Below are positions 6,242 to 39,413 of a DNA stretch of 64,000 nt, in pieces. The DNA lies in contig JACROF010000003.1 of the NCBI GenBank assembly GCA_016214555.1, forward strand, positions 930-64,929, written 5' to 3'. The DNA is from Candidatus Levyibacteriota bacterium. Its GTDB lineage: Bacteria > Patescibacteriota > Microgenomatia > Levybacterales > UBA12049. The notes under the pieces are model-generated. The model searched no databases. It worked only from the letters and a program-made list of their open reading frames with translations, and had not been told where the DNA came from. Position numbers and translations under genes: made by a program. How positions within the stretch are numbered: position 1 is the first letter of the stretch; every line of letters starts with the position of its first letter.

Positions 6242-7324
6242 TCAATAACCTAACAAATGGTACTTCCCTTGGTCCGATTTACGAAGAATTTTTTTGATCT
6301 CCATAACAGACAAAATGATATTCAACCTTGAAGGATCAAAAGAAATTCTTTTTACAAGCTCATCAAACGTTAACTCTTCATGAGCTAATAAAGTAATAAT
6401 AGTTTGCTCGTCCGGTACATCGCTTTTGAATAATGTATGTTTTATCATTGGTGATGCTTCACCTAAAGAACTCAAGATATCATCACCTGATGTGACAAGT
6501 ACAGCTCCCTTTTTAAGAAGCTTATTGGGTCCCTTTGAAAGACTGGATGTGATAGGACCAGGTATTGCAAAAACAGACCTTTTGTTAACAAAACAGTCCT
6601 CAGCAGTAATCAAAGCACCACTATCCTCTGCCCCTTCAGTGACAACTATTGCCTTTGATAGTCCAGCGATAATACGATTTCTTGATGGAAAAGAACCTTT
6701 AGTAGGCTGAGATCCCGGTGGGTATTCTGAAACAATCAAGCTGCCCTCTGACAAGATCCTTTCATAAATTTTTTCATTTTCTTTCGGAAAACAAAGATCT
6801 ACCCCGCATCCCAAAACAGCGATAGTTTTCCCTTTGTTCTCAAGCGCTGTCTGGTGAGCAATAGCGTCAACTCCCATCGCAAGACCAGAAATAATGCAAA
6901 AATTTGCCTCAACGAGCTCACGAGTCACCATTTCAGTCACCTGTCGACCATATGTCGTTATTTTTCTAGTTCCAACAACACCAAGAGTATTTTGTAACAA
7001 AAACAAATCAGGATTCCCTTTCCCAAAAAGCACAAAAGGTGGATTTGCACTCTGCCTTAGCAACTCAGGATAATCATTATCTGCTAATGTGACAAACCAT
7101 ATATTTTTTGCCTCAAGATTTTTAACGTAAGAATCAAGGGAGAAATTCTTTTTGAAAACAAAAAACTTTTGAGCTAGGGCAGGTTTTGCTATCGCTTCAA
7201 AACTACTCTCTGATGCATTCCAAGCATTTTCTGCTGAACCAAAAGCTTCCAGAAGCTGGCGAAATTTTTTAGGTCCAATTCCTGGAAAAAGTGAAAATCC
7301 TAACCAATATAATTTTTCTTGCAT
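6242..7324 (-). CDS. dprA: DNA processing protein DprA/Smf
   Basis: Rossmann-like DprA core (GLAMGVDAIAHQTAL, SEYPPGSQP) and a C-terminal winged helix. Confidence 0.8.
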   Translation of the reverse strand: MQEKLYWLGFSLFPGIGPKKFRQLLEAFGSAENAWNASESSFEAIAKPALAQKFFVFKKNFSLDSYVKNLEAKNIWFVTLADNDYPELLRQSANPPFVLFGKGNPDLFLLQNTLGVVGTRKITTYGRQVTEMVTRELVEANFCIISGLAMGVDAIAHQTALENKGKTIAVLGCGVDLCFPKENEKIYERILSEGSLIVSEYPPGSQPTKGSFPSRNRIIAGLSKAIVVTEGAEDSGALITAEDCFVNKRSVFAIPGPITSSLSKGPNKLLKKGAVLVTSGDDILSSLGEASPMIKHTLFKSDVPDEQTIITLLAHEELTFDELVKRISFDPSRLNIILSVMEIKKILRKSDQGKYHLLGY

Positions 7325-7371
7325 GAGAGAATAAATTCAGTATAGCAAGGACTAGAAGATAACAAAAAAAA

Positions 7372-9150
7372 TCAATGGAGATTGCCAAAATACGACTCGA
7401 GAATTTTCTTAGCAATTGGTCCTGCTTCACTTGAGCCCTCACCTGATGATTCGTTGAGAACAGTAATAATAATTTGTGGGTCATAGGCAGGAGCATACAG
7501 CGTGATCCACGCATGAGGAAGTGTCTCCTCGGTACCATGCTGAGCTGTTCCCGTTTTGCATGCTATCGATATATGACGATAATCACTCAATGCGGCAGAA
7601 TTACTTGCTTGAGGATCTGGTAATATATTTTTCCCATCGATTCTTAATTCTGAATTCTTAATTCTGAATTGGAACAATGGCCATGCTGTTCCTCCTGTGT
7701 CGCATGCCCCAATCATGCCAGAACGAATAAGAGAAATATCCTCTTTTGATAAAGGCACTTTAGCAATAACTTCTTCGCGAGCGTTCTTCAAAAGATGAGG
7801 CTTATACAATTTTCCTCCATTGGCAATAGCTTGAGTCCATGCGTTAACCTGGAGAGGAGATGTTAATAAATACCCTTGCCCAATACCATAGATATAGGTG
7901 TCCCCTAAATACCACTCCTCACCTACATTTTTTTGCTTCCATTTTTCATCAGGCAAAACACCCGATGCCTCACCGGGAAGGTCTATACCAAGCTTTTTCC
8001 CAACCCCCATATTTTTGGAAGTTTCTACAATAGTTGACAAGCCAATTTTTGCTGCTAATTCATAGAAAAAAATATCATTGGACCTGGCAAGCGCTTTCAC
8101 TACATCTACCTCACCTTCTGTTCTACCATATTGGCTAAAATACCAATTTGAGTAGGAATATGGTCCAATAGTAATTTTTCCTTTATCAGTAACCTTATAA
8201 GACCCATCAATTTTTTTACTTTCCAGCGCTCCTGCTGCCATCACAATTTTAAATGTAGAACCCGGTGGATAGGTTCCTGAAATTGCACGGTCTAAGAGTG
8301 GCTGATTTTCTCCTGTAAGTATTGCTGACACTGTTGGATATGCCGTATTAGTAGCTTTATATGACTGAGTCAGTGTGAAAAGATTTGGATCAAATGATGG
8401 CTTGGACATCAGTGCTAATACCTCACCATTTGGAGTCGTCACAACAACCGCCCCTTTATGAACATCTTTCATCGCATCGTAAGCTGATTGCTGTAATCTT
8501 GCATCAAGAGTAAGCAGGAGGTCGTGACCTGGAGTTGGATCTGTCTGACCAAGTATCCTTACTTCCTTTCCTGATGCGTCCACTTCAACAAGTCGCTTCC
8601 CATTTATTCCCTTAAGAAATGGTTCATACTGATACTCAATTCCTGTCTTACCTATAAAATCAGTAATATCATAATCTTGATAAAGCGGAGAGTTCAATTG
8701 CTCTTTATCTACCTGCCCAACATATCCTAAAACATGTGCCATTGCATCTTTAAAAGGATACTGCCTCAAAGAATCAACAAACAATGACTTATCGCCTTTT
8801 GCTATTTTTTCAAGCGCATCTTCTTGCGTTAAAAGTTTTGTTTTCTCTCCGATCGTCTGACGAAATCCTGGAATATTATAGATAAGCGGAATCCCGTTTC
8901 TGTCAAAAATAACGCCTCTTGGGGCATAAATTATTGATGTCCTAATACGATTTGAGTCAGAGAGACCTCGATAAAAATCACCTCTTATAATCTGCAAAAA
9001 AACAATTCTAAAAAAAAGAATACCGCCAAAAAGAGCAACAAAAAGAATAAGAATTTGCGATCTCATACCACGAGAAATATTTTCAGAAAAGGTATGACGT
9101 TTGATTTTTTCTGTCCTGATTGCGTCTGGAAATGCTATACCATGCTTCAT
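7372..9150 (-). CDS. mrdA: Penicillin-binding protein 2 (peptidoglycan transpeptidase)
   Basis: N-terminal TM segment and an STFK active-site motif. Sits immediately downstream of mreBCD. Confidence 0.8.
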   Translation of the reverse strand: MKHGIAFPDAIRTEKIKRHTFSENISRGMRSQILILFVALFGGILFFRIVFLQIIRGDFYRGLSDSNRIRTSIIYAPRGVIFDRNGIPLIYNIPGFRQTIGEKTKLLTQEDALEKIAKGDKSLFVDSLRQYPFKDAMAHVLGYVGQVDKEQLNSPLYQDYDITDFIGKTGIEYQYEPFLKGINGKRLVEVDASGKEVRILGQTDPTPGHDLLLTLDARLQQSAYDAMKDVHKGAVVVTTPNGEVLALMSKPSFDPNLFTLTQSYKATNTAYPTVSAILTGENQPLLDRAISGTYPPGSTFKIVMAAGALESKKIDGSYKVTDKGKITIGPYSYSNWYFSQYGRTEGEVDVVKALARSNDIFFYELAAKIGLSTIVETSKNMGVGKKLGIDLPGEASGVLPDEKWKQKNVGEEWYLGDTYIYGIGQGYLLTSPLQVNAWTQAIANGGKLYKPHLLKNAREEVIAKVPLSKEDISLIRSGMIGACDTGGTAWPLFQFRIKNSELRIDGKNILPDPQASNSAALSDYRHISIACKTGTAQHGTEETLPHAWITLYAPAYDPQIIITVLNESSGEGSSEAGPIAKKILESYFGNLH

Positions 9151-19457: not shown

Positions 19458-19529
19458 AGGGGTGTAGTGAAATGGCTATCACAGCAGTCTCCAAAACTGC
19501 TTTTCACAGTTCGAATCTGTGCGCCCCTG
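19458..19529 (+). tRNA. tRNA-Trp(CCA)
   Basis: Acceptor AGGGGTG/CGCCCCT, anticodon stem GCAGT/ACTGC with loop CUCCAAA, T arm CACAG-TTCGAAT-CTGTG. Sits in the conserved rpmG-trnW-secE position. Confidence 0.8.
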
Positions 19530-19580
19530 CTACATTCAGTTCACTTCTCCACAATTATATAAACAAATTGTGGTTCGTTC

Positions 19581-19904
19581 ATGAACGTGGCTAGCCACGT
19601 GAATAGAAGTAGAAGATGGATGTGGCCTGCCATCATGTTTTACTTCTACATCCTCAGAAGTTTAAAAAATCAAAAACTTTATCTTGGCTATTCCTCTGAC
19701 TTAAAAGAAAGAATAAAATCTCACAATAATGGCAAAAATAATGCCACTAAACCAAATATTCCCTATGAATTAATTTACTATTCTGCATTTAAAAGTGAAA
19801 AAGACGCTATTAATTGTGAGCAATATTTCAAAACCACTGCTGGGTGGAAACGAATTCATAAAATGCTTGAAAACACATTAAAAGATACTCAGTCTCTGAT
19901 ATAA
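19581..19904 (+). CDS. GIY-YIG nuclease-domain protein
   Basis: FYFYILRS...KLYLGYSSDLKERIKSHN matches the GIY-YIG core. The start is probably an internal Met. Confidence 0.65.
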   Translation: MNVASHVNRSRRWMWPAIMFYFYILRSLKNQKLYLGYSSDLKERIKSHNNGKNNATKPNIPYELIYYSAFKSEKDAINCEQYFKTTAGWKRIHKMLENTLKDTQSLI

Positions 19905-19911
19905 TTTCCTC

Positions 19912-20346
19912 ATGATTAAAATACCATATTACGAGACTTCTTATTTCTCCTTCTCCAACTTCTCATCCCACTCTATAAAAATAGATGGAGTTTTATATCC
20001 TACCGTTGAACATGCTTTTCATGCTGCGAAATTCGATAATGAAAAAATAAAGGAAGAAATCAAAAGCGCGGGCAGTCCGCTGAAGGCATTTGAGATTGGT
20101 AAGAAGTATAAACCACAAAGGAGAAGCAACTGGGATGAGACAAAAGTGTCTGTACTTCAAAAAATCATTGCTGAAAAAGTGAAACAACACGACGAAGTCA
20201 GAAAAGCATTACTCGCAACTGGTAATGAGGAGATCATAGAAGATAACCCACTTGATGATTTCTGGGGAAATGGTAAAGACGGAAACGGACAAAATCATAT
20301 GGGTAAAATCTTAATGAGGATCAGAAATGAACTACAATTTCAGTAA
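19912..20346 (+). CDS. NADAR (YbiA/DUF1768)-family protein
   Basis: FSNFS...YPTVEHAFHAAKF...EDNPLDDFWGNGKDGNGQNHMGKILMRIR matches the NADAR signature. Confidence 0.7.
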   Translation: MIKIPYYETSYFSFSNFSSHSIKIDGVLYPTVEHAFHAAKFDNEKIKEEIKSAGSPLKAFEIGKKYKPQRRSNWDETKVSVLQKIIAEKVKQHDEVRKALLATGNEEIIEDNPLDDFWGNGKDGNGQNHMGKILMRIRNELQFQ

Positions 20347-20429
20347 TTTTTGTAAATAATACGTTCCAACATATCCACATAGACCTATCTTCTTGTTGCA
20401 TATAAAAATATAAAATCTACAATATCACC

Positions 20430-20957
20430 ATGGTTATTTCTCCATATCAACAAACACTTACCCATAGCTGCTTGGCAGCTTGTTTTTTGATGCTTCAAGA
20501 AAAACAGTTTACAAAGTTTGATGAACAGGAACTGGCTCTTAAAGGGTCAAGCAGAAAATATCCTTTCTATGTTGTGGGTATTCCTGAAGAGTTTGTCAAA
20601 AAGTATGATGGCAACATTAAAATTTATGCAGATAATAATTTTTTTGCTACAACACTTCAAAAAGCATTTATAGGCAATAAAAAAATACATGTTACTCACA
20701 AAAAGATAGATATGGCTTTTATCACTGAATTACTTAATGAAAAACCACTTATTTGTCATATTGATAACCATGCATTAGGTGATTATTCTCATGTATCACA
20801 TTTCATAATTCTAGAGAAAGCAACAAAAGAATTTGTAACTATCATTGACCCCTGGAGTGGAAAGAAAAAGAAAATTAGCAAATCTACACTGACTGAGGCA
20901 ATATCTGATTTAAAAAATCATGTAAAAATGTGTCCCCTTCTATTCTCAGTTGAATAA
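20430..20957 (+). CDS. Peptidase C39-like cysteine protease domain protein (standalone)
   Basis: A Gln/Cys motif (QQTLTHSCLAACFLML), a His motif (SHFIIL) and an Asp motif (IIDPW), in C39 order. Confidence 0.65.
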   Translation: MVISPYQQTLTHSCLAACFLMLQEKQFTKFDEQELALKGSSRKYPFYVVGIPEEFVKKYDGNIKIYADNNFFATTLQKAFIGNKKIHVTHKKIDMAFITELLNEKPLICHIDNHALGDYSHVSHFIILEKATKEFVTIIDPWSGKKKKISKSTLTEAISDLKNHVKMCPLLFSVE

Positions 20958-21049
20958 TACACCCAACATAGTTGCTTAGCACGTAAAACAAAATTAAAAA
21001 GCGGACATTATTATTCCAACCATAACCACCCCAATGGTGCAAGAAAAAA

Positions 21050-21634
21050 TTAAAGCAGATTGCTATTTTTGAGCATGCGCTGCTGGATATCAATCCTATT
21101 AATCTCACGAGTAACAAAATTTTGACCCTGTGGTGAACCTTGACGAATCTGATCGATAACCCCTTCACTTGGCACAACTTTTCCCTCTATGTCGACATAC
21201 TCAGGATTCTGGCCAATACGTCGTATTGCCACCTCTCTTGCATGCTCTGGGTCATCTGTATAAAAACCCCATGCATTCGTTTTCAAGGTTCCTTTAAATT
21301 CCCTTGCGACTCTGTCTTTAAAAGATGTAGCCTCACCTACGTATCCTTCTCGTACTCTCATTATCTCACCCATGGTATAAAAATAATCCAGATCAGGATA
21401 ATACCCTACAACCTGATTTTGAAATGCTTCAGACTGGGGATCTATTCCATCCATCTGAATTCTTGCTGCTTCAAGTGCTAAATTAAGCGATTCCATATCC
21501 CATCCCTTTCCTGGCCCATGAATCGAGCTGTCTCTATAGCGAATAGGTGGTGGATTCTCGGGTGCAGGAGAATTGTAGTAGTTTATAACAAAAGCGCCAC
21601 TTTTTTTAAAAATAACCATAATCCAACCAAACAT
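21050..21634 (-). CDS. Hypothetical protein
   Basis: ORF only; no recognisable motif. Confidence 0.4.
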   Translation of the reverse strand: MFGWIMVIFKKSGAFVINYYNSPAPENPPPIRYRDSSIHGPGKGWDMESLNLALEAARIQMDGIDPQSEAFQNQVVGYYPDLDYFYTMGEIMRVREGYVGEATSFKDRVAREFKGTLKTNAWGFYTDDPEHAREVAIRRIGQNPEYVDIEGKVVPSEGVIDQIRQGSPQGQNFVTREINRIDIQQRMLKNSNLL

Positions 21635-21681
21635 TTGCGAAAATCTTACATTACTTATAGTTTTTCCTTTATAATAGTTTT

Positions 21682-22305
21682 ATGAGGAAATTGATCGGGG
21701 TTATTATTGTTACCTCTTTTGTTATTGGAGGAGCATTTCTTCTGATACAAAATAATACGACTCGCCAGCTTCCCAAATCTCTCTCTGAGTCAAACCAAGT
21801 CGCACCTTCCTCGTCTAGCTCAGAAATAATTGATAAACTCAAGGCTGGAGGAAGTAGTCTTTCAGATCCAAAAGGCGTTTTTAGCATTCTCTACCCAAAT
21901 GATTACAAAACAGATACCCAAAATAACGGACAATATATTCGTATTTACAAAACTGGTTCAACACAACGAGGACAAACCGAAATGTATGATGGAGTCATTA
22001 TTACCTTTGAAAGTATCACTCTTAACAGTCAGAAGCTGGAATCCTTTGTAGATGAACATATTAAAAGTAGTACAGTCGATGGCACCACCACGGTGAGCCA
22101 ACCAAAAAGAGCTACTGTGGTCAATGGTTATCCTGGCTTTAGCTATACTCTTCACGGACTTGGTGAATCCACATATATAGTCCTTCAGAAAGATACCCAA
22201 TCAGACTATGCAGTAAGCATATCCTATGCTGTGATGGACCCAGAAAAAGTTGGCTATCAACAAGAAGTCGATGCCACCTTCTCCACTATCCAGCTTCTCA
22301 AATAA
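21682..22305 (+). CDS. Hypothetical exported or membrane-anchored protein
   Basis: N-terminal TM or signal anchor followed by an S/T-rich linker. Confidence 0.4.
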   Translation: MRKLIGVIIVTSFVIGGAFLLIQNNTTRQLPKSLSESNQVAPSSSSSEIIDKLKAGGSSLSDPKGVFSILYPNDYKTDTQNNGQYIRIYKTGSTQRGQTEMYDGVIITFESITLNSQKLESFVDEHIKSSTVDGTTTVSQPKRATVVNGYPGFSYTLHGLGESTYIVLQKDTQSDYAVSISYAVMDPEKVGYQQEVDATFSTIQLLK

Positions 22306-22421
22306 ATACTATAGGTTGACTTCTGATTTCATTTATGGTAAAGTTCACCTAAGTCAATGGCCACACAAGGCTATTAGAACATTCACAGCTTAGTCGTTTT
22401 AAAAGTGAAAGGATACCGCAG

Positions 22422-22781
22422 ATGGGTCGTTATCTTGCTCTTTTGCCATTCGATTTCGATTGGGTGAAAACTGATTTTTCTCACTCGATATTAGAGTGCA
22501 CCCAGCGATCGGAGCTTTTCGAAGAGCTTGAAAAACTTCCGAGCATGCCTGTTCCAGAGCAATTTCATACCTATCTTGGCTACGATCCTGAGACTGAGAG
22601 GACTTGCTACGGCAACACCCAGACCACAAATGATGGCGAGCAGCTCATGTATGTTTTGGTCGAACAGCTCCTTCCATTTTCCACTCACGAGCTCGTGAGG
22701 GACAATTTTCTCAATAGGGCTGTTTGGGCGTATCTGAAAGAGCTTCCAAGGAAAACAAAAATAGCTCTTTACTTTCACTGA
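22422..22781 (+). CDS. Hypothetical protein
   Basis: ORF followed 20 nt later by a strong terminator. Confidence 0.4.
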   Translation: MGRYLALLPFDFDWVKTDFSHSILECTQRSELFEELEKLPSMPVPEQFHTYLGYDPETERTCYGNTQTTNDGEQLMYVLVEQLLPFSTHELVRDNFLNRAVWAYLKELPRKTKIALYFH

Positions 22782-22800
22782 TCCAACTTTACCACCCACA

Positions 22801-22824
22801 CCCCGGCCATTGGCCGGGGTTTTT
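22801..22824 (+). terminator. Rho-independent terminator
   Basis: CCCCGGCC-ATT-GGCCGGGG followed by T5. A near-identical 31-nt copy lies at 26105..26128. Confidence 0.75.
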
Positions 22825-22930
22825 CTTTGGGAAAAAACTCCAAATCTATCTCTATAGGACGTTTTTATGCTATACTTCCCCAACTGCAAACCGCAGGCAC
22901 ATTAACCTTGATAAAAAGAAAGGCACGGAT

Positions 22931-23743
22931 TTGGTCATACCAACAAATATCCCTATACCGACCCTCACGAAAAATGAGGTAGCAATACTATCTCATATAG
23001 TCACTACTCAAAGTCCATGCTATATAGGCAATATCTCAAAAGAGCTTGGCCTTGCTGAGTCAACGGTACGCTCCTCTCTTAGATCGCTCTGCACCAAAAA
23101 TTTGATCGTTCGCGACAAAATTGAAAAGACAAATGTCGGAGCGGCAAGACAGCTTTATATCCTTCGTGACCTTCAATTTGCTCGGCAAGTTCTAGGAGCA
23201 CGAGGAGGAGTACCTCAACCTACGCCGGTAGCACAAATTGAGAAAAAAGGACTACGAGTTATCTACGCTCGGGAAGATTTTGATCCGTCAACAATTGGAA
23301 GATCAATCTTTCTTGCCGGACCAACACCTCGCTCAAAGCGCGTACCATCCTGGAGAAAGAAAGCCCTCAACTTCCTCTCCCAGATGGTTGCAACGCCTTT
23401 GACAGTATTTGTTCCGGAAGATCATGATGGCACCTTCCACAAAGCGTTCTTCGATGATCAGGTCGAGTGGGAAGAGAAAGCTCTTACAGCAGCAACTGTC
23501 ATCGCATTCTGGATCCCACGAGATCTCAGAACTCTTCCTGGTTTTACCACCAACGATGAGTTTGGAGCATGGAAGAGGTCAGGGAAAGTAGTCCTTGGTG
23601 TACCACCTGAGACTCCAAAGACTCGCTACCAACTGTATTACGCCAGAAAACTTGGTATTCCTACAGCCAAGTCGCTTGAGAAAACACTGGCACTTGCGTG
23701 CATCAAGGTAAAAGAAATTAATTGCGACACCCCGGCTTCATAG
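22931..23743 (+). CDS. Winged-helix DNA-binding domain fused to a nucleoside 2-deoxyribosyltransferase (NDT/DNPH1)-like domain
   Basis: The ORF-track start (22724) lies upstream of the terminator at 22801, so the real start must be downstream; an in-frame TTG at 22931 is proposed. The wHTH is EVAILSHIVTT...ISKELGLAESTVRSSLRSL. The C-terminal part reads IFLAGP ... PGFTTNDEFGAW, which aligns with the NDT pattern I-Y-x-A-G-P/W...G-[ST]-x-x-E-x-G-[YA]. Confidence 0.45.
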   Translation: MVIPTNIPIPTLTKNEVAILSHIVTTQSPCYIGNISKELGLAESTVRSSLRSLCTKNLIVRDKIEKTNVGAARQLYILRDLQFARQVLGARGGVPQPTPVAQIEKKGLRVIYAREDFDPSTIGRSIFLAGPTPRSKRVPSWRKKALNFLSQMVATPLTVFVPEDHDGTFHKAFFDDQVEWEEKALTAATVIAFWIPRDLRTLPGFTTNDEFGAWKRSGKVVLGVPPETPKTRYQLYYARKLGIPTAKSLEKTLALACIKVKEINCDTPAS

Positions 23744-23754
23744 CCGGGGTTTTT
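23730..23754 (+). terminator. Rho-independent terminator
   Basis: CCCCGGC-TTCATA-GCCGGGG followed by T5. The stop codon sits in the loop. Confidence 0.7.
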
Positions 23755-23861
23755 CTTATAAGCGCACTATGGGATTGTTCTATCACAATCATTTCGCTAT
23801 AATACATACTGTTCTCAGGCAAATCACCTTGAGCTCATTTAGCACATTTAAAGGAGGAGAT

Positions 23862-24275
23862 ATGTATCTTAAAATAAAAGCGCTCATGTACGTTGTTGGG
23901 TATCCTTTGTTCTATCTGCTCACAAGAGGTCTTTTGCACATCAACAAGATTGAGACAGACCTACCTCACGACAGTATTGAGGTTGCTCTGAAAACATTTG
24001 TTTATTGGTCTATTCTCTTCGCGGTGATACCAGTTAGTTTCATGTTATTTCTTGGACTAATGGAAGCGCCTCCACCAATAGCTGTCATAGCTTTTATACC
24101 AGGCTTGATGCTGATTGGCCTTACCTATGCAGCAATGCCTACAACCGTTGGCATTGGTGGCCTAAGCTTTGCTTGTTTGTTGAGCCTCATTCTTGTGGTC
24201 ATAACACACCCATTCGAGCGATGCATGGTTGAAATCGAGTTCCCTAGCTCAGAAAGGTCTTTACACGAAAGATAA
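23862..24275 (+). CDS. Small polytopic membrane protein
   Basis: An AAAGGAGGAG RBS precedes the ATG at 23862 (the ORF track starts at 23769). Four hydrophobic helices. Confidence 0.45.
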   Translation: MYLKIKALMYVVGYPLFYLLTRGLLHINKIETDLPHDSIEVALKTFVYWSILFAVIPVSFMLFLGLMEAPPPIAVIAFIPGLMLIGLTYAAMPTTVGIGGLSFACLLSLILVVITHPFERCMVEIEFPSSERSLHER

Positions 24276-24290
24276 CTATATCCACTCATG

Positions 24291-24318
24291 CGGTGGCCAT
24301 CAGGCCACCGCTTTTTTT
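24291..24318 (+). terminator. Rho-independent terminator
   Basis: CGGTGGCC-ATCA-GGCCACCG followed by T7. Confidence 0.75.
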
Positions 24319-24750
24319 GTTGTGATCACATTAATACTCTCTTAACATGCTCGTCTCTACCTACAATGATAAATATTCCCTATTATCACTATAGGTTTAC
24401 TTTTTAAGACTTCTAGTGTATAATCCATACGCTTTACAGGTTAGTACAGAACAATTGCGTTTTGCTACTTTCTAACGTAAATAGTTCTTTAACAACTTGA
24501 GATTCAAATTTTAAGAATTTATCTTTATTTCTATCGATATGAAGCTAATTTCGGGTCGATGGCGCTTTGCTCATGGTATCGTGCGTAAAGTGCCGTCGAT
24601 CAGGAAGAATCAGCGCGATTCAATCCTGCATTGTAATGGCTTTGTTTGAAATGGAGAAAGGCCTGTAGACATATGCAAGGAGGTGCACAACCCTAACAAA
24701 CAGGTAAATTCTTTCGTCGCCAAACTTTACCCAAAAAAGGAGAAGAATCG

Positions 24751-26076
24751 ATGTCAGATCAGACAGGAGCCCTTCAGATTCCCGTTGTCGGAACCGGCAC
24801 TCTAGCAGTTCCACCGCAACCACAGGGATCAGCCAGCTCCGCCCTCATGCAGACGGGAAATACAGCAACAGAGCGAAAGCAGCTCATCTGCAAGGACATC
24901 CTCAGGGCATTAAGCCCCGAAAGATTCCAACAAGCCACGGTCGTTGCCCAAGCCGACTACCCCAATATGCTGGTAAACAGCCAGATCGGTATGGTATACG
25001 GCTCTGAAGCGATCGCCGCCATGAACGCACTCGTCAGTTCGATGCGCACCAGAGTCACTCCGGTAGAAATACCGCAGCTTGACAAGATGATGGCTGCGAT
25101 CAACGATGAGATGCGCAGCTTCCGCGGCCACTACGACACCAGCAAGGACCCCGAACTTCGCGAGAAATACGAAAAAGCGATGGGCGGGATCAAGAAGCTA
25201 TTCAACCGAGGCAAGACCTACATGGAAATGCTCCATGAAGATATGCAATCCTCGGTCGAAAGGCTCGATGGCATCAAGGCAGAGCTACTTGCTAAGCAAG
25301 CTCAGCTCATACGAAATGTCGGCCTCTACGACGAGCTGTATCTGGCAAACGAACAGGAAATCGTCAACGTCATCGAAGCCATCGCACGGATGGAGATGAT
25401 TTGCGATTTGGCAGCTGCAGAAGCAGCTGCAATCGTTGGCGACCCCAACGATCCCGTCAATCACGCCAAGTTCGAGCGGAAACGTTTCATTGCAATATTT
25501 GCCAACAACCTGACGCTCAGGCTCACCGAATTCAAAAACCGCCTATTCGCCGGCTATGCGATGTCACCACAGATCACTCAGTCTCGAGACATCGATACTG
25601 CGATGGCGATGAAACTTTATTCTGTCTGCGATACCACCATCCCTCTCATCGAGTCAACCATGCTTCGATGGCAGATGATGGTCCAGGCAGAACTCGCAGC
25701 CGAAGCCGCAAACGCAGTCGCAAGACTCACCAACGAGGTACTCGTCGCGAATTTCGAAGCCGGAGCGGATATCCTGCCTCGAGTCGCCCAGGCGATTCAA
25801 ACGCCGACGATAACCCCCGAGACCATTTTGGCACTCGGTACAAGTATCGAGAAGCAGACTCAAGGCATCATCGATGCCTACGCTGCCGGACGTGAGCGAC
25901 GCGCAGCAGTCGATGATGCGATCGTAACTACGTACCGTGTCATCCAAAATGCTACGGCCAAGGTGAGCGACGAAGTCGTTGATCAACTGCTTGCGCAAGC
26001 CAACGCACCGCTCCCAGCTGTCATCACTGCGAAGCTTCCCGAGCTTCCAGCAGGTATTGAATCTCAAGCTTCCTAG
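24751..26076 (+). CDS. TelA-like (toxic anion resistance / KlaB family) protein
   Basis: GC is about 55%, well above the window average. An N-terminal Q-x-G...LSS element and a central GLYDELYLANEQEI region resemble B. subtilis TelA (compare DMLDEMYEKNKDYY). Long helical architecture and a strong AAGGAG RBS. Confidence 0.45.
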   Translation: MSDQTGALQIPVVGTGTLAVPPQPQGSASSALMQTGNTATERKQLICKDILRALSPERFQQATVVAQADYPNMLVNSQIGMVYGSEAIAAMNALVSSMRTRVTPVEIPQLDKMMAAINDEMRSFRGHYDTSKDPELREKYEKAMGGIKKLFNRGKTYMEMLHEDMQSSVERLDGIKAELLAKQAQLIRNVGLYDELYLANEQEIVNVIEAIARMEMICDLAAAEAAAIVGDPNDPVNHAKFERKRFIAIFANNLTLRLTEFKNRLFAGYAMSPQITQSRDIDTAMAMKLYSVCDTTIPLIESTMLRWQMMVQAELAAEAANAVARLTNEVLVANFEAGADILPRVAQAIQTPTITPETILALGTSIEKQTQGIIDAYAAGRERRAAVDDAIVTTYRVIQNATAKVSDEVVDQLLAQANAPLPAVITAKLPELPAGIESQAS

Positions 26077-26104
26077 TTCCTAGCAGCGCCTAGGAGATTT
26101 CTAA

Positions 26105-26128
26105 CCCCGGCCAATGGCCGGGGTTTTT
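26105..26128 (+). terminator. Rho-independent terminator (duplicate of the one at 22801)
   Basis: CCCCGGCC-AAT-GGCCGGGG followed by T5. Confidence 0.75.
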
Positions 26129-26154
26129 CTTTGGAAAAACGTTATACTAGATAT

Positions 26155-26286
26155 ATGGGAAACAAGAAAAAAATTATCCCTTTTTTTGAAAAAAATGAAT
26201 TACGAATTATTGCAATAAGTCTGAGTATTTTATCTTTTGGTCTTGCCATCGCATGGATTGGATTCGCGCTCTTTTCCGCAAAATAA
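26155..26286 (+). CDS. Candidate 43-aa single-TM small protein
   Basis: Translates to MGNKKKIIPFFEKNELRIIAISLSILSFGLAIAWIGFALFSAK. Below the ORF-track cutoff and has a weak RBS. Confidence 0.25.
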   Translation: MGNKKKIIPFFEKNELRIIAISLSILSFGLAIAWIGFALFSAK

Positions 26287-26344
26287 TTTTTTAAATTTCT
26301 CTCTTGTTTTTTTGTAAAAAATTATTGATACTTATATCTATTCA

Positions 26345-27763
26345 ATGAAGTATATAGTTATTACTTTTTCCGGTCTTGGTCTCCCCATCGCCTACAAACT
26401 ACATCAGCAAGGATACGAAGTGCATGTTGGTATGGTCCAAAACATCAAGGATTATGTTTTGGAAGAAGAAATATCACGAGCAAAAGAAGGTGAAGAAGAC
26501 AGAAATAAAAGAATGCAACTTTTCCAAGGCATGCTTCCCATTGAGCCTGCAGATAAAGTTATTGAACGGATGAGATCAATCCCCAACCCTCAGGACTACT
26601 TTGTCTTTTTTGATGAAAACTGTCTTTATAGGTGGGTAGATAAAATTCGCGATCTTAACTTTCATGGTAATTTCCCAACAAAAGCAGATTTTTTATTTGA
26701 AGTTGATCGCAAAAGAGCCAAGCAATTTGTTCAGGAACACTACCCCAAACTTAACACCCCTGAGGTACACGAATTCACCAAAATCAAAGATGGTATAAAA
26801 TTTCTCAAAGAAAGCAAAGAACTTTGGGTACTCAAAGGACAAATTGATACCGCTCGAACTTTTGTCCCTGCAGTTGAAGACCCAGGACTTGCCAATACCC
26901 AACTTGCTGAAGTTTTGGCTAATTTTCCTTACAAATATGAGAGGCTGGGATTTATTCTTGAGAGATTTATTCCCGATATCATCGAGCTGACGCCTGAAAA
27001 ATTTTATTACGACGGTGAACCCATTGCTACATCTCTTCTCTTTGAAAACAAACCATTTGGCAGTGGCAATATCTCAGTCCAGACGGGTTGCGCTGAAGAC
27101 CTCTGCTTCCCAACTGATATGAATGACCGCATCAATAAGATTGCTTTCCCACCTATCATTGATGAAATGGCTAAAGAGCATAAAGGGTGGTTTATCTGGG
27201 ATGCCTCAATTCTCATTGGAAAAAGAGATGGAAAAATGTATTTTGGTGAGTTTTGCTCAAATCGGCCAGGTTATAGCAGTTTTTTCAATGAACTCGCACA
27301 ATGCAATAGCGTCAATGGATTTTTTGAAAGCCTTGTCAAAAAGAAAAATCCTTATACACTAGGGACCGTTGGCTGCTCCGTATCAATTTTTAATATGAAC
27401 CGAGATGAAGACACCGATGCAATCTCTTCAAATATTCTTATTAACTACAAGCCTGAAATCGAAAAAGATGTCTGGTTGTGGGACGTAAGACGAAACGAAC
27501 GAAATAATATCGTCACCATAGGTACAGATTGGAATTTAGCCGTCATTACTGGAGCAGGGAAATCAATTCCTCAGGCTGTTAACAGACTCTATAGAAATGT
27601 TGAGAATTTTGCTATTGTTGGATCATACCATCGACCAAAAGACGATTATTTGTCCATGGATTATCAATCATCAATTATCAATAGGATTAACTATGGCCTC
27701 GAGCGAGGCTTGTTTCACATACCATTTGATGTTAAAATCGGCGATATCGACGCAACGGTATGA
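26345..27763 (+). CDS. ATP-grasp superfamily ligase, PurD (glycinamide ribonucleotide synthetase)-like
   Basis: N-terminal pre-ATP-grasp region (MKYIVITFSGLGLPIAYKL), a central region LWVLKGQ...ERFIPDIIELTPE, and a C-terminal YFGEFCSNRPGYSS that aligns with PurD EFNxRFGDPE. Confidence 0.5.
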   Translation: MKYIVITFSGLGLPIAYKLHQQGYEVHVGMVQNIKDYVLEEEISRAKEGEEDRNKRMQLFQGMLPIEPADKVIERMRSIPNPQDYFVFFDENCLYRWVDKIRDLNFHGNFPTKADFLFEVDRKRAKQFVQEHYPKLNTPEVHEFTKIKDGIKFLKESKELWVLKGQIDTARTFVPAVEDPGLANTQLAEVLANFPYKYERLGFILERFIPDIIELTPEKFYYDGEPIATSLLFENKPFGSGNISVQTGCAEDLCFPTDMNDRINKIAFPPIIDEMAKEHKGWFIWDASILIGKRDGKMYFGEFCSNRPGYSSFFNELAQCNSVNGFFESLVKKKNPYTLGTVGCSVSIFNMNRDEDTDAISSNILINYKPEIEKDVWLWDVRRNERNNIVTIGTDWNLAVITGAGKSIPQAVNRLYRNVENFAIVGSYHRPKDDYLSMDYQSSIINRINYGLERGLFHIPFDVKIGDIDATV

Positions 27764-28236
27764 CAAAAAATCGACTTTTGGATTTAAAAAAACTCAAATT
27801 TGAGGTTCGTGACGTCATGCGATATGACGATGCAGGGGATTATTTTGCCAACACGATTGTAGCCTACGACTTCAAAGACGACGTGATCACCAACGCTATT
27901 TTTCTCCACGAATTTATTGAGTATATGCTCATCAAGTCATCGGGTATTGAGCCTGAGCTGATTGACAAACTCGACACTGTTCCCAATGCTGAAAAAGATT
28001 ATCCAAGAGAGTGGAAGCTCTATGAAAAATATCACGATATGGCAAATAGTGTAGAGAGACAATTTATCGAAAATCTTGGCCTCAACTGGGAAGAATATGA
28101 CAAAACAGTCAACACCGCTAAAATCAAAACCGCAGTTCGTCACCTCTCAGATGAGATGCATAAAAAACAAATGGATAAAAAAGATATTACCAAAGCAAAA
28201 AGAATTGTCCGCGCAATCTTTAGAAAAAGAAAATAA
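27760..28236 (+). CDS. Hypothetical protein, translationally coupled to the ATP-grasp gene
   Basis: ATGA start/stop overlap with the upstream gene. Confidence 0.45.
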   Translation: MTKNRLLDLKKLKFEVRDVMRYDDAGDYFANTIVAYDFKDDVITNAIFLHEFIEYMLIKSSGIEPELIDKLDTVPNAEKDYPREWKLYEKYHDMANSVERQFIENLGLNWEEYDKTVNTAKIKTAVRHLSDEMHKKQMDKKDITKAKRIVRAIFRKRK

Positions 28237-28345
28237 TATTCCCTTTCTATCTTATAGTTTTTGAGTTTCTCCTCGCCATTTGCTATAATCCACCTAACGT
28301 GAAAAGGCATGGCACGAGCCATATACCAACCTTTTCATTTGCACC

Positions 28346-28756
28346 TTGAAAGGGAAAGAAATGACTGAGACAGCAAAACGCGGTGACTACGAAGTTGTCG
28401 CCTGTGTTGGCCTTGAGGAAATTGATGATCTCCCCTTCCGGGAGGCTCATCTTATCTGCTTGATTGGCATGTGTAATGGAAGCTGGAATATTACCTATGC
28501 CCGGGATGGCTCATGCTGTATGCGCATAGCTGTCACGAACGATCCTGAACTTTTTACGTATAGCCTCATCAAGAGCGCTGCATTCCTTGCTCAACTTCGC
28601 ATCCACAGTGCGAAATACACAACAGGTGAAAATATCGAACAATCGATCATATCTAGACTCAAGGGGCTTAAAGCTCCTCCGATAGTCTTTGCCAGATATC
28701 TCTGGCAATCAACGACCATGATCATTCGCGGCGTTCGAAACCAAAAGAAAGGTTAG
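28346..28756 (+). CDS. Hypothetical Cys-rich protein
   Basis: ORF with elevated GC; Cys cluster CLIGMCNGSW...GSCCM. Confidence 0.35.
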   Translation: MKGKEMTETAKRGDYEVVACVGLEEIDDLPFREAHLICLIGMCNGSWNITYARDGSCCMRIAVTNDPELFTYSLIKSAAFLAQLRIHSAKYTTGENIEQSIISRLKGLKAPPIVFARYLWQSTTMIIRGVRNQKKG

Positions 28757-28760
28757 ACAA

Positions 28761-29321
28761 ATGGACATTGTAGACATGCTAAAGCACAGTGTGACCATGG
28801 CGTACTTCTCAGAAGTCGCTCCTTGGTTTGCGGCAATTGAAGTTGTCGCACTCGGATTTTTCATTACGATGGCGATCCGCTACAGCATTGAGCCTGAACA
28901 CAAGCTATATTTCCTACCCTACTCAACGTTTTGGGCAGGTATGACGCTTGGATTTGGACTTATTGCGTACTTTGTCTCAAGAGGAACGCAGGACTATCAT
29001 CCAACGCATCACTGGTATGACCAATTCTGGTTCATGCTACTCATCGGTGCCATAGGGATGTTTATTGCCTTGCAAAATTCCTACAACACACAAAGAAACA
29101 CTGGTCGGGATATCTGGACACATAGTGAGTGGTGGTTGTGGCTTGTTGTCGCACCCATACTCACGCCTGTCTTGGTCCGAGGAATTATCGTCCTAGCAAA
29201 GACTGATGGAGCTGCCTCCACTAACTTTGCAGGAGTCATAATCGGCCTGTCTATCTATGTACTGACTCTATCTGTTGATGCTTTGAGATCACCCTCTAAA
29301 GCTTCAACAAAAAAAGAGTAA
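28761..29321 (+). CDS. Polytopic membrane protein, unknown function
   Basis: Five hydrophobic helices; lies 5 nt downstream of the previous ORF. Confidence 0.4.
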   Translation: MDIVDMLKHSVTMAYFSEVAPWFAAIEVVALGFFITMAIRYSIEPEHKLYFLPYSTFWAGMTLGFGLIAYFVSRGTQDYHPTHHWYDQFWFMLLIGAIGMFIALQNSYNTQRNTGRDIWTHSEWWLWLVVAPILTPVLVRGIIVLAKTDGAASTNFAGVIIGLSIYVLTLSVDALRSPSKASTKKE

Positions 29322-29340
29322 CTTTCCTTTTCTCCAATTT

Positions 29341-29376
29341 GGCATTCCGGGCTCGTCTCGGAATGCCATTTTTTTT
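29341..29376 (+). terminator. Rho-independent terminator
   Basis: GGCATTCCG-(9 nt)-CGGAATGCC followed by T8. Confidence 0.7.
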
Positions 29377-30034
29377 ATCTCTTCAAAATTTTTTTAAATC
29401 CCTTGAAGTAATAAAAAACCAATCCCATACACCCTAAAGCAAATCCTAAAAGACCTCCTCCTATAACATCAGAAAACCAATGCTCGCCTAAATAGATTCT
29501 GGACACAAGCATAATAACAACAAATACACCAACCAAAATTGATAAAAATATTTTTGTATGTTTTGACCATCCACTATGCCAGATAATAAAAAGGAGAACT
29601 GTTGCTAAAAAAACGGCTCTCCCACTATGGCCTGATGGATAGGAGAACTCTGTCCTTACGTGAAATTGATCAAACTGCACAATTTTATGTGTTCGAAGCA
29701 TAAATTCAGGAGGTGGCGGATGATCAACAAAAAATTTTCCAAAAAGTTCAATTACATGAAATCCCACAAAACCACCAAAAAGCATAATCCCAGAAATAAT
29801 TTTTCGCCAATAAATGAGGGTGAAAATTACTATAACAAGCATCGGCTCAAAGCTCCCTATGTCACTAAAAAATGAGAAAACATCATCAACATTACGAGTG
29901 ATGTTATTTTGAAGCCTCACGGTCGTATCAAAATCAATTCGAGTCAAAAAATCTTTGTGGACTAGATAAGAAAAAAGGATAAAAAGAAGAAAAAAACCGA
30001 TACCAACAAGAAAAAATTTCAGTTCTTTTCGCAT
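29375..30034 (-). CDS. PAP2-family phosphatase (undecaprenyl-diphosphatase-like)
   Basis: PSGHS and SRIYLGEHWFSDV motifs in a membrane protein. Confidence 0.7.
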   Translation of the reverse strand: MRKELKFFLVGIGFFLLFILFSYLVHKDFLTRIDFDTTVRLQNNITRNVDDVFSFFSDIGSFEPMLVIVIFTLIYWRKIISGIMLFGGFVGFHVIELFGKFFVDHPPPPEFMLRTHKIVQFDQFHVRTEFSYPSGHSGRAVFLATVLLFIIWHSGWSKHTKIFLSILVGVFVVIMLVSRIYLGEHWFSDVIGGGLLGFALGCMGLVFYYFKGFKKILKR

Positions 30035-30056
30035 CTATCTATCATAGCAAAAAGAC

Positions 30057-30317
30057 TCAGGGCTGTCTGGATCTGATGTATCTATGCAAAACCTTTGCAC
30101 CACCAGCACCTACGACTGCTGCAGATGCACCAATAGCAATTGATTTCCTATTTCTTGAAACAAAATTTACTACTTCGACAGCATTGCCTCCGACTGCTGT
30201 GATTGATGGATGAGGATCTCCGCGGGGAATGATAATATCATAGGGACTATCAACGATTTGGGCATATTCATTCATTTTGCCGACCTCATACGGATCGCGA
30301 CTCTCTCGCCCTCTCAT
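30057..30317 (-). CDS. Small Gly/Ala-rich hypothetical protein
   Basis: ORF only; lies 4 nt downstream of galU. Confidence 0.3.
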   Translation of the reverse strand: MRGRESRDPYEVGKMNEYAQIVDSPYDIIIPRGDPHPSITAVGGNAVEVVNFVSRNRKSIAIGASAAVVGAGGAKVLHRYIRSRQP

Positions 30318-30320
30318 ATC

Positions 30321-31205
30321 CTAATCAAGATTAAGTGTTTTTAGAAATGCCTTAAAATCTCCATTAATATCCGGATGCTCAAGCGCTAATTCTACAGCTG
30401 TCTTCATATACTCAAGCTTATTTCCTGTGTCATAATACTTACCATTCTCAATCTCAACAGCATAGACAGGAACCCCTGAGTCTTGCAGCTTGTTAATAGC
30501 ATCAACAAGCCAAATTTCTCCACCTTTCCCAGGCTCAAGTGACCTGAGCGCTCCAAAAAGTTCAGGAGGGACGATGTATGCTCCATGAGTTGCGATATTA
30601 GAAGGCGCCTCATCAGGCTCTGGTTTCTCAACAATACTTTTAATTTTATAAACATTTCCCTCGACAGGATCCAAATCAGCGATCCCATATCTCTTAAGAT
30701 CTTCTTTTTTATCAATTCTGACTCCCGATATAACAATTCCCCCGTATTTTTCATAGACATCAATCATCTGGGAAAGCCTGGGAGGGTTTGCGTAAATAAA
30801 TTCATCTCCCCATAAGACAGCAAAAGCTTCATTTTCAATAATTGGCTCTGCAGCAAGAACAGGAGTACCATTACCATAAGGCCCCTTCTGCCGTACATAA
30901 ATAAAATTAGCAAGATCTGCTATTTTTTTTGTCTCTTCAAGAAGCTTTTGCTTATTTCCCTGCTCTAAATTCTTGATAAGGTCCTGATTTGGTACATCAA
31001 AATGATCCTCAATTGCTCTTTTGAGAGCCCCTGTAACAATTACGATATCCTCAATACCGGAAGCTACAGCTTCCTCTACAACATATTGAATAACAGGCTT
31101 ATCTACAATAGGAAGCATTTCCTTAGGAAGAGCTTTTGTCTGAGGAAGAAATCTGGTCCCAAAACCAGCTGCGGGGATAACGGCTTTTCGTATCCTTTTT
31201 GCCAT
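30321..31205 (-). CDS. galU: UTP-glucose-1-phosphate uridylyltransferase
   Basis: KAVIPAAGFGTRFLP...LPKEMLPIVDKPVIQY. Confidence 0.85.
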   Translation of the reverse strand: MAKRIRKAVIPAAGFGTRFLPQTKALPKEMLPIVDKPVIQYVVEEAVASGIEDIVIVTGALKRAIEDHFDVPNQDLIKNLEQGNKQKLLEETKKIADLANFIYVRQKGPYGNGTPVLAAEPIIENEAFAVLWGDEFIYANPPRLSQMIDVYEKYGGIVISGVRIDKKEDLKRYGIADLDPVEGNVYKIKSIVEKPEPDEAPSNIATHGAYIVPPELFGALRSLEPGKGGEIWLVDAINKLQDSGVPVYAVEIENGKYYDTGNKLEYMKTAVELALEHPDINGDFKAFLKTLNLD

Positions 31206-31368
31206 ATTCTATTTTGTCACAAAAGATAAAATTTTACCTGCCATGACAAAGTAAAATTAATTGTACGCGAGCTCTCTTTACATGTCAATGAGGATTTGGT
31301 ACAATTACTTGATCTCAAATCATATATCTCAAAGCTCGTCTTGACATTTGAGTTTTACGGTTTGAGTT

Positions 31369-31557
31369 TTGTTTATGACATCGCCAGTTTCTTTTCTTAC
31401 CCAAACATATGATGAGTTAAAAAAAGTCGTCTGGCCAACACGTCAGCAACTTATGAAATTAATGCTGATAGTTATGTTTGCAAGTCTTGTTGTAGGACTC
31501 TACATCGGTGGCATAGACTTTGTTCTTACTAAACTAACAGAATCGTTATTAAAATAA
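31369..31557 (+). CDS. secE: Preprotein translocase subunit SecE
   Basis: EL+KVVWPTRQ followed by a single TM segment. Confidence 0.8.
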   Translation: MFMTSPVSFLTQTYDELKKVVWPTRQQLMKLMLIVMFASLVVGLYIGGIDFVLTKLTESLLK

Positions 31558-31569
31558 CAATAGTAACTT

Positions 31570-32160
31570 ATGACACAAGCAACCGATTTACCAAACGGAC
31601 CATCTGAAGAAGAAATTAAAAAAGCATCATTATCTGAGGCTGCTAAATGGTACATTGTTCATACCTATGCTGGTCATGAAAATAAAGTAGCTCGCAATCT
31701 CAAACAACGTGTTGAGACGATGGGTTTTGAGACCCGCATCTTTGACATCATCGTTCCTACTCGCCAAACCATTAAAGTGCAAGGTGGAAAAAAAGAAGAA
31801 GTCAGTGAAAAAATCTTTCCAGGATATGTTCTTGTCAAAATGATTCTCGATGATGAATCATGGCTTCTTGTTAGAACAACGCAAGGAGTTACAGCATTTA
31901 TTGGTGCTGGCAATAAACCAACGCCAATTTCAGAGAAAGAAGTTGAGGCTATTCAACAGTTCATGACACAAGAAGAACCTCTGTACAAAACTTCATTCTC
32001 TCTTGGTGAAGCGGTCAAAATCGTTGATGGACCTTTCGCAGATTTTCTGGGTACTATTGACAGCATAGATGAGACTCGTGGTAAACTACGCGTCTTGGTA
32101 AGTATCTTCGGACGAGAAACGCCCGTTGAGCTTGATTTCCTGCAAGTACAAAAAATATAA
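31570..32160 (+). CDS. nusG: Transcription termination/antitermination factor NusG
   Basis: KWYIVHTYAGHENKV (NGN domain) and a C-terminal KOW domain (GEAVKIVDGPFADFLGTI). Confidence 0.85.
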   Translation: MTQATDLPNGPSEEEIKKASLSEAAKWYIVHTYAGHENKVARNLKQRVETMGFETRIFDIIVPTRQTIKVQGGKKEEVSEKIFPGYVLVKMILDDESWLLVRTTQGVTAFIGAGNKPTPISEKEVEAIQQFMTQEEPLYKTSFSLGEAVKIVDGPFADFLGTIDSIDETRGKLRVLVSIFGRETPVELDFLQVQKI

Positions 32161-39385: not shown

Positions 39386-39413
39386 ATAAAAAAAGCCCCG
39401 GCAAAGCCGGGGC
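39386..39413 (-). terminator. Rho-independent terminator for paralog 1
   Basis: GCCCCGGC-AAA-GCCGGGGC with a T-run on the minus strand. Confidence 0.7.

Follow-up and report, generated by a model that had tools for sequence, protein, structure and literature searches.

The stretch of DNA analysed here (the window; 64,000 nucleotides, positions 930 to 64,929 of contig JACROF010000003.1, assembly GCA_016214555.1) derives from a Candidatus Levyibacteriota bacterium. The gene under study lies on its plus strand at 22931..23743 and encodes a protein of 270 amino acids, in which a winged helix-turn-helix (wHTH) domain is joined through a linker to an enzyme domain of family PF15891, related to the nucleoside 2-deoxyribosyltransferases (NDT). 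A two-domain architecture of this kind had been proposed from the nucleotide sequence and its translations only (the sequence-only reading), and was borne out by Pfam and NCBIfam matches and by predicted folds for both halves.

The fusion gene and its start codon

The mechanical open reading frame (ORF) runs from 22724 to 23743 on the plus strand, with TTG 22931 in frame. The first 69 codons of this frame cover the 3' end of the gene at 22422-22781 together with the intrinsic terminator of that gene (22800..22820, plus strand; a 9-bp stem with eight GC pairs, then a T-run), and any start codon of the fusion gene has to lie 3' of this terminator. Between the terminator and the wHTH domain TTG 22931 is the sole in-frame ATG, GTG or TTG. 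It is preceded, at a distance of 7 nt, by a Shine-Dalgarno-like GAAAGG (22918..22923, plus strand), which resembles the GAAAGGA found 8 nt ahead of the ATG of neighbouring gene 22422. The length of the N-terminal tail counted from this TTG agrees with that of two stand-alone wHTH relatives (P0121 and P0122). The coding sequence ends in a TAG located within the loop of the gene's own intrinsic terminator (23729..23750, plus strand), and the gene is monocistronic.

A candidate extended -10 element, TGcTATACT (22868..22876, plus strand), was read by eye from the sequence. The consensus promoter scan did not call this box, there being no -35 hexamer; a TGCTATACT-type box also precedes other genes of the window, for example upstream of 6242-7324, and as an extended -10 the box at 22868-22876 is plausible. 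No promoter-like site was found within the wHTH-coding part (22931-23250).

The top database match to the protein was NCBI entry MBI5044588.1 (P0001), from a Candidatus Levybacteria metagenome-assembled genome (MAG), which is annotated with 160 aa only and begins 'MYAREDF'. Its start is the ATC codon of Ile111 (23261..23263, plus strand), with AAAGGA 9 nt upstream. In an alignment of 60 sequences every homologue begins with 'M-x-[IV]-[IVH]-[YWF]-A' at the position of L108-R-V-I-Y-A of the window protein, so that Leu108 (CTA) stands in the fusion where the homologues have Met1. This segment forms the conserved first beta-strand of the enzyme domain (E108-112), and a start at ATC 23261 would lose the initial L-R-V of the strand and leave only Y-A. 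No ATG, GTG or TTG is positioned to start an NDT-only protein: the nearest canonical codon, TTG 23102, falls within the region of the recognition helix, and closer to the enzyme start stand the rare codons ATT 23237, ATC 23261 and ATT 23294.

A second protein of the same 90% cluster, P0125, has 270 aa and is identical to the model from TTG 22931. It was called from the same TTG on a 42-kb Logan contig assembled from run SRR12113407. This contig differs from the window by a 229-bp indel at 21622 and by single-nucleotide polymorphisms at 26153 and 30560, and is 100% identical to it over the whole fusion gene including the junction. Since a separate assembly matches both the gene and its junction at 100%, an assembly chimera is unlikely. 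The sequence-only reading had proposed TTG 22931 as the start while leaving room for a frameshift or sequencing error behind the missing ATG. The TTG was upheld by its being the only canonical start after the terminator, by the Shine-Dalgarno-like box and by the identical 270-aa call in the Logan assembly, and the error explanation is not needed. A genuine in-frame fusion, requiring neither a frameshift nor a sequencing error, is the parsimonious account, and the public 160-aa annotation with its ATC start truncates the protein. The fusion is reproducible in two assemblies, yet known from a single population.

The two domains, their relatives and genomic context

The wHTH domain comprises residues 12-91 (22964..23203, plus strand), with helix H3 (residues 43-55) as the probable recognition helix and residues 59-78 as the wing. 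Residues 12-82 matched the NCBIfam models Lrs14 (1.2e-8) and Sta1 (4.7e-8), and the N-terminal half matched TrmB (7e-4) and several other wHTH families in Pfam. Among PDB sequences 2D1H was matched (1.4e-3). A structure was predicted from a five-sequence alignment (A4); it showed a helix-helix-helix-wing-helix order with a mean predicted local distance difference test score (pLDDT) of 73, and superposed on SmtB, CzrA, AbfR2 and MarR-type structures (E ~1e-4, probability 1.0, 2.2-2.8 Å over 79 columns). The N-terminal half is a wHTH of ArsR/Lrs14/TrmB type. The earlier label 'MarR-like' was right as to the wHTH fold, which MarR-type structures match, and only approximate as to type: the best matches are of ArsR/Lrs14/TrmB type, and the MarR models of Pfam reached only 0.03-0.04. 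Neither the NrtR winged helix (NrtR_WHD, PF21906) nor Nudix matched the window protein in Pfam. The wHTH part is an open frame of 107 codons with 44% GC, and its intact frame, significant profile matches and canonical predicted fold argue that it is not decayed. It is followed by a Gly/Pro-rich linker (residues 92-107; 23204..23251, plus strand), predicted to be disordered, with pLDDT <50 in both models and without a counterpart in any aligned homologue.

The enzyme half was delimited from Pfam, alignment and model as residues 108-265 (23252..23725, plus strand), an NDT-like domain of the DrHyd superfamily. Pfam PF15891 (Nuc_deoxyri_tr2; gathering cut-off 30 bits) scored 58.8 bits (E 7.5e-16) over residues 124-226, which aligned with profile positions 2-103 of 105. 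In an AlphaFold2 model made from 59 homologues pLDDT was >90 over residues 110-265. The best Foldseek match of this model in the PDB was 4MCJ (E 1e-8, TM (target) 0.79, root-mean-square deviation 3.2 Å, 154 columns), BDI_0649 of Parabacteroides distasonis, which carries the structural-genomics label 'putative nucleoside deoxyribosyltransferase'. It was followed by 7M5H and TIR domains and, further down, by weak matches to DNPH1 (E 0.08) and a Leishmania NDT (E 0.12). When PDB sequences were searched with the family profile only 4mcj was matched (E 1.7e-8). The domain shares with canonical NDT and DNPH1/Rcl (PF05014) the Rossmann-like fold of TIR/DrHyd/SLOG type. It differs from them in having no PF05014 match even at E<=10, in the weakness of the fold matches (E ~0.1, TM ~0.46) and in its motif FLAGPTPR, where DNPH1 has YFCGSIRGG. 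The NDT/DNPH1-like assignment of the sequence-only reading thus holds at the level of the NDT-like (DrHyd) superfamily and of the predicted fold; the domain is not a canonical member, its family being PF15891.

The two motifs quoted in that reading, IFLAGP (residues 126-131) and PGFTTNDEFGAW (203-214), are present and fall in the most conserved columns of the family. All 19 residues that are invariant in the 60-sequence alignment are kept (L128, G130, P131, R134, W141, R142, P162, Q177, W180, E181, F193, W194, R197, T207, N208, E210, G212, G223 and P225), and so are the family motifs FLAGPTPR, QxEWE and TTNxExG. The fusion is off consensus at four of the 51 columns of >=80% conservation, one of them being the lost Met, while other family members are off at a median of two (range 0-10). 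With 19 of 19 invariants kept and deviations within the family range, there is no sign of decay to a non-catalytic sensor. The columns of the segment at 23309..23332 (plus strand) are invariant or nearly so; the segment lines up with IFLAGT in 4MCJ and probably contacts a nucleotide or phosphate. The signature TTNDEFG (residues 206-212; 23546..23566, plus strand) contains T207, N208, E210 and G212, of which Glu210 is the candidate catalytic nucleophile and is aligned with a Glu of 4MCJ. Between family alignment A1 and human DNPH1, whose sequence was checked against the PDB, hhalign produced one alignment only, which was not significant (probability 0.16, E 0.38). There the conserved Glu after strand 4, E210, falls on the DNPH1 nucleophile E104, and QVEWE falls on QDLEW. 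The nucleophile mapping made earlier is plausible on this alignment, though unproven. The PF15891 domain is complete and, judged from its residues, probably catalytically competent.

Relatives of the wHTH half were few. None was returned by a word-index search or by two metagenome scans; when 1.8 billion representatives were searched exhaustively with phmmer, two were found at ~4e-4, and a profile search brought the number to four proteins altogether. They stand alone, are 109-193 aa long and consist of a wHTH followed by a C-terminal helical tail, which in the fusion is replaced by the linker and the enzyme domain. The one relative with a readable locus (P0124) lies in a mobile-element-like context (DUF3631, PIN and an excisionase-type HTH). 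A viral scan for wHTH relatives yielded matches at the level of the HTH only, to phage proteins that resemble replication initiators and are encoded beside DnaB. The viral contigs L170, L171 and L173 encode phage proteins of ~240-290 aa with a helix-turn-helix (HTH) segment, 'G(I/L)SESTVRS..K.LC', resembling 'GLAESTVRSSLRSLC' of the window wHTH. On L170, the only one of the three read for this, the gene lies 1.5 kb upstream of a DnaB helicase gene. The likeness fits the weak PHROG match to replication-initiation proteins. A second match in these viral loci, to the enzyme domain, fell within DnaB and was rejected.

Homologues of the enzyme domain amounted to 638 proteins, 576 genomic matches and 216 viral matches, among which 120 listed proteins, the best 80 genomic loci and the best 80 viral loci were inspected for fusions. 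Identity of the enzyme domain to its relatives is 45-59%. The 120 listed proteins cover ~50-60% of the query, its C-terminal part only. They are stand-alone proteins of ~155 aa or PF15891-NUDIX proteins of ~385 aa, most of them carrying the C-terminal NUDIX. No wHTH fusion was found in the listed proteins or in the kept genomic and viral loci. The fusion is like 4MCJ, gp334 of Bacillus phage G and the PF15891-NUDIX proteins in enzyme domain, invariant motifs and fold; in the other members examined the enzyme domain comes first, without an N-terminal wHTH. Extensions of tblastn matches into the N-terminal region at L016 and L077 proved spurious, being separate upstream genes (a helicase with an HTH tail and PncB). 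Among 157 loci checked, 29 had open frames 5' of the FLAGP motif; all but two of these were set aside as artefacts of GC-rich non-coding DNA. The two are viral metallophosphoesterase fusions, one a Pfam-confirmed Metallophos_2-PF15891 protein (L158), the other with an upstream frame that is metallophosphoesterase-like by eye only, Pfam giving just PF15891 (L151). The family occurs in Actinobacteria, Myxococcota, bacteria of the candidate phyla radiation (CPR) and jumbo phages, and is common on very large viral contigs, many of the 216 viral matches lying on contigs of 100-600 kb.

As a side observation, the closest homologue of the enzyme domain (P0002, 59% identity) comes from JGI sample 3300071358, the same metagenome as the wHTH relative P0122. 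A gene of at least 113 aa, cut by the contig end, begins 101 nt downstream of P0122, and the pair could be the unfused arrangement.

Neighbouring genes were clustered in 80 genomic loci (L001-L080) and their families confirmed with Pfam. In 13 of these loci a PF15891 or PF15891-NUDIX gene lies on the same strand among genes for the salvage of nicotinamide adenine dinucleotide (NAD). Ten belong to the ~22 CPR loci and three to gammaproteobacterial MAGs, one of which (L041) is counted solely through its radical-SAM neighbour. The neighbours comprise NAPRTase (PncB), a NadD-like cytidylyltransferase, NAD synthase (NadE), a PncA-like isochorismatase, ADP-ribosylglycohydrolase (ARH) and NrtR. At L002 (4086-9720) the order is NrtR, PF15891-NUDIX, NadE and PncB, with NrtR directly upstream, and at L077 (139-8255) it is NadE, NrtR, radical-SAM, PncA, PncB, PF15891-NUDIX, an unidentified ORF (6410-7621) and NadD. 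The NrtR-like neighbours match both the Nudix-like sensor and the NrtR winged helix (PF21906). Among the best 80 of the 216 viral loci, NrtR-like genes were present in seven and ARH-like genes in three, and at L157 a NADAR gene lies directly upstream of the PF15891 gene.

The fusion partners of the family, NUDIX and metallophosphoesterase, are both phosphoester hydrolases. The NUDIX-fused gp334 of Bacillus phage G (AEO93593.1; L168, 244460-245650) is encoded between DnaE-like polymerase genes and aligned with the domain of the fusion in tblastn with 46% identity over 95% of the domain (E 9e-33). AEO93593.1 has been described as a DrHyd-superfamily member and predicted ADP-ribosyl cyclase (Iyer et al. 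2022, PMC9503650). Because of the NAD-salvage operons, the NUDIX and metallophosphoesterase fusions and the phage G prediction, the substrate of PF15891 is more likely phosphorylated and NAD-related (of the NAD+/ADP-ribose type) than a deoxynucleoside or a base in DNA. The CPR and gammaproteobacterial clusters suggest an unrecognised step of NAD or ADP-ribose recycling under NrtR control.

Function of the fusion protein

The reading favoured here, to which we would give somewhat less than an even chance, is that the fusion protein is a one-component enzyme-regulator responsive to a nucleotide or to NAD. Domains of ArsR/Lrs14 wHTH type are overwhelmingly transcription factors, and the classical one-component architecture has its wHTH at the N-terminus and a domain for ligand binding or oligomerisation at the C-terminus; it is for these reasons, and because enzyme-derived sensors have precedents, that an enzyme-regulator is preferred. 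The precedents include NrtR (Nudix and wHTH), NadR (HTH with nicotinamide mononucleotide adenylyltransferase, NMNAT, and ribosylnicotinamide kinase), BirA and PurR of B. subtilis. All of these combine an HTH or wHTH with a nucleotide-binding enzyme fold, the same logic as in the fusion. The sensor fold of the fusion is DrHyd/NDT-like, as against the Nudix, NMNAT or phosphoribosyltransferase folds of NrtR-, NadR- and PurR-type regulators, and its wHTH family differs from that of NrtR. Regulators of the one-component kind in which an enzyme-derived nucleotide sensor is joined to an HTH domain are common, and Nudix-HTH and WYL-HTH regulators have been described in ADP-ribose systems (PMC9503650).

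The general idea of an HTH joined to a nucleotide-enzyme fold is thus well precedented, and the value of the present case lies in the functional clue that it offers to a widespread uncharacterised family and in the correction of a truncated annotation, within the limit of one gene from one uncultured population. As a 'Rosetta stone', the natural fusion to a wHTH of transcription-factor type suggests that PF15891 binds a small nucleotide worth sensing. Combined with the NrtR/PncA/PncB/NadD/NadE context, it narrows the candidates to NAD-derived molecules.

The following course of events may be proposed. A stand-alone wHTH regulator gene would have been joined in frame to a stand-alone PF15891 gene, at the cost of the C-terminal coiled-coil of the regulator and of the ATG of the enzyme. 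A single polypeptide of 270 aa would be translated from TTG 22931, with the wHTH tethered to the enzyme by a flexible linker of 16 residues. The PF15891 domain would supply dimerisation in place of the ancestral dimerisation tail, and would bind, and probably cleave, the N-glycosidic bond of a phosphorylated nucleotide. From the family context we infer that this ligand may be NAD+-derived, for example NAD+, nicotinamide mononucleotide or ADP-ribose. Its occupancy would shift the seating of the two wHTH domains on an operator and so gate the binding of DNA.

Several findings weigh against an enzyme-regulator. Its catalytic residues are intact, as opposed to those of pure sensor domains, which are usually without them. 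The wHTH model is of moderate confidence. No operator-like palindrome, and no inverted or direct repeat besides the terminator, was found at 22780-22960, which includes the 110-nt upstream region, nor was there a riboswitch or a leader structure in the region upstream of the gene (fold z-score -1.3). The 64-kb window contains no NAD-salvage genes and hence shows no target regulon. PF15891 is a family without a biochemically characterised member, and nothing was found in the literature under PF15891, Nuc_deoxyri_tr2 or 4MCJ. The fusion is a singleton in one population, and selection for the fused state is unproven.

Unlikely, and still the strongest of the alternatives, is a stand-alone nucleic-acid-guided effector for defence or toxicity, comparable to a retron type II effector without its retron, in which the wHTH senses or docks on DNA and PF15891 hydrolyses NAD(P)+ or transfers ADP-ribose. 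Retron type II effectors offer a conceptual precedent: they pair an NDT-like domain, reported as a distant relative of pfam 15891, with a DNA-binding winged helix (Mestre et al. 2020, PMC7736814), and the N-glycosidase of Retron-Eco1 hydrolyses NAD(P)+ (PMC12673091). Like the fusion, the effectors of Retron-Eco1/Ec86 and Retron-Sen2 hold both domains in one protein; their order is the opposite, with the NDT-like domain N-terminal and the winged helix C-terminal. The fusion has no detectable sequence match to these effectors, and no retron structure appeared among the top 50 Foldseek PDB matches of the enzyme model. PADLOC returned wHTH-level matches only (Csa3, CasR and CARF, ~4e-4) and neither a retron-effector nor any other defence model for the enzyme domain. 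No reverse transcriptase domain was found in the neighbouring ORFs between 18.0 and 28.2 kb, and no msr/msd RNA, Rfam over the window giving four tRNAs only. The intact catalytic motifs, the monocistronic gene with its own terminator, the location in a GC-heterogeneous variable block of ~12 kb with NADAR and TelA-like genes, and the NADAR gene directly 5' of PF15891 in viral locus L157 would all suit an effector. Against this, no adjacent antitoxin is visible, the NADAR gene of the window being 2.6 kb upstream across four genes on both strands, and the relatives of the family lie in housekeeping NAD-salvage operons, not in defence islands. The specific version in which engagement of DNA by the wHTH switches on the PF15891 N-glycosidase, independently of any retron, to cleave NAD+ or transfer ADP-ribosyl groups appears more doubtful again. 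If true, it would give the first functional handle on PF15891, and with it on the PF15891-NUDIX proteins found in CPR NAD operons and in jumbo phages.

The remaining alternatives, translation of the enzyme only and a role as DNA glycosidase, are less likely than an effector. That the fusion has no functional meaning, because only the enzyme is made from ATC 23261 while the wHTH is a decaying remnant, or because the joining was a recent neutral or deleterious accident, is improbable in our view, ranking between the general and the specific form of the effector proposal. Such an account would agree with the 160-aa NCBI annotation, the AAAGGA 9 nt 5' of the ATC, the single occurrence of the architecture among the inspected protein, genomic and viral matches, and the near-orphan state of the wHTH. 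ATC, however, is exceptionally rare as an initiator, and its use would cost most of the conserved first strand; the wHTH region is intact and contains no detected internal promoter, and it has its own Shine-Dalgarno box and TTG, spaced from the domain as expected. Very unlikely is a DNA-directed N-glycosidase, brought to DNA by the wHTH and removing or exchanging bases on deoxyribose. A DNA-binding domain joined to an N-glycosidase-type fold might call for such an enzyme, and the fold is distantly related to those of DNPH1 and NDT, whose substrates are deoxynucleotides and deoxynucleosides; yet none of the NDT/DrHyd superfamily members named in the cited literature acts on bases within duplex DNA, the fusion partners and operon context point to small soluble nucleotides, and the wHTH is of transcription-factor type. 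The sequence-only reading had offered a nucleoside-sensing regulator or an enzyme acting on nucleotides in DNA. Its observation is confirmed and this interpretation supported in part, a regulator sensing a nucleotide or NAD being the form preferred here.

Surroundings of the fusion gene in the window

The fusion gene is located in a block of ~12 kb (19458-31570) between tRNA-Trp and nusG, at a place where secE-nusG usually follows directly. The GC content of genes in the block ranges from 31% to 54%, and they encode GIY-YIG, NADAR, C39-like, TelA-like, PAP2 and NTP-transferase proteins and several ORFans. From this content the block resembles a variable island, but att-like repeats of the tRNA end were not found. 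The NADAR-domain gene (19912-20346) was identified by Pfam (3.5e-34) and by the PADLOC candidate defence model PDC-M42C (3.8e-10). Neighbouring proteins of 119, 137, 472 and 158 aa had no annotation in Pfam, NCBIfam, PHROG, PADLOC or the PDB, and a likeness of the 472-aa protein to ATP-grasp enzymes, suspected by eye, was therefore discarded as unsupported.

A terminator hairpin, CCCCGGC...GCCGGGG followed by TTTTTCTT, is shared by four different genes, with copies at 22800-22835, 23729-23757, 26104-26139 and 39396-39412. Over 36 nt the copies at 22800 and 26104 share 94% identity, and between them lies a 3.3-kb segment of higher GC containing the fusion gene, a membrane protein gene and the TelA-like gene. 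The repeated terminators were considered as borders of a mobile cassette; this was dropped in favour of a shared terminator type, because the same hairpin follows four different genes.

The Logan contig (L169) carries 229 extra bases (L169:2146-2374) at window position 21622, within the minus-strand gene 21050-21634, whose product thereby has 263 aa, against 194 aa in the window. The shorter form in the window may represent a deletion variant or a collapse during assembly.

Many genes of the window have a -10-like box of the form TAnnnT ~6-12 nt before the ATG without a Shine-Dalgarno sequence and look leaderless, as seen upstream of 3600, 13901, 19912 and 21682 and of the minus-strand genes at 6242, 9576 and 10404. 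Clear Shine-Dalgarno sequences were seen at genes of higher GC (22422, 23862, 24751, 40209, 41067 and 43864). This split suggests that genes with two styles of expression, or of two origins, coexist in the genome.

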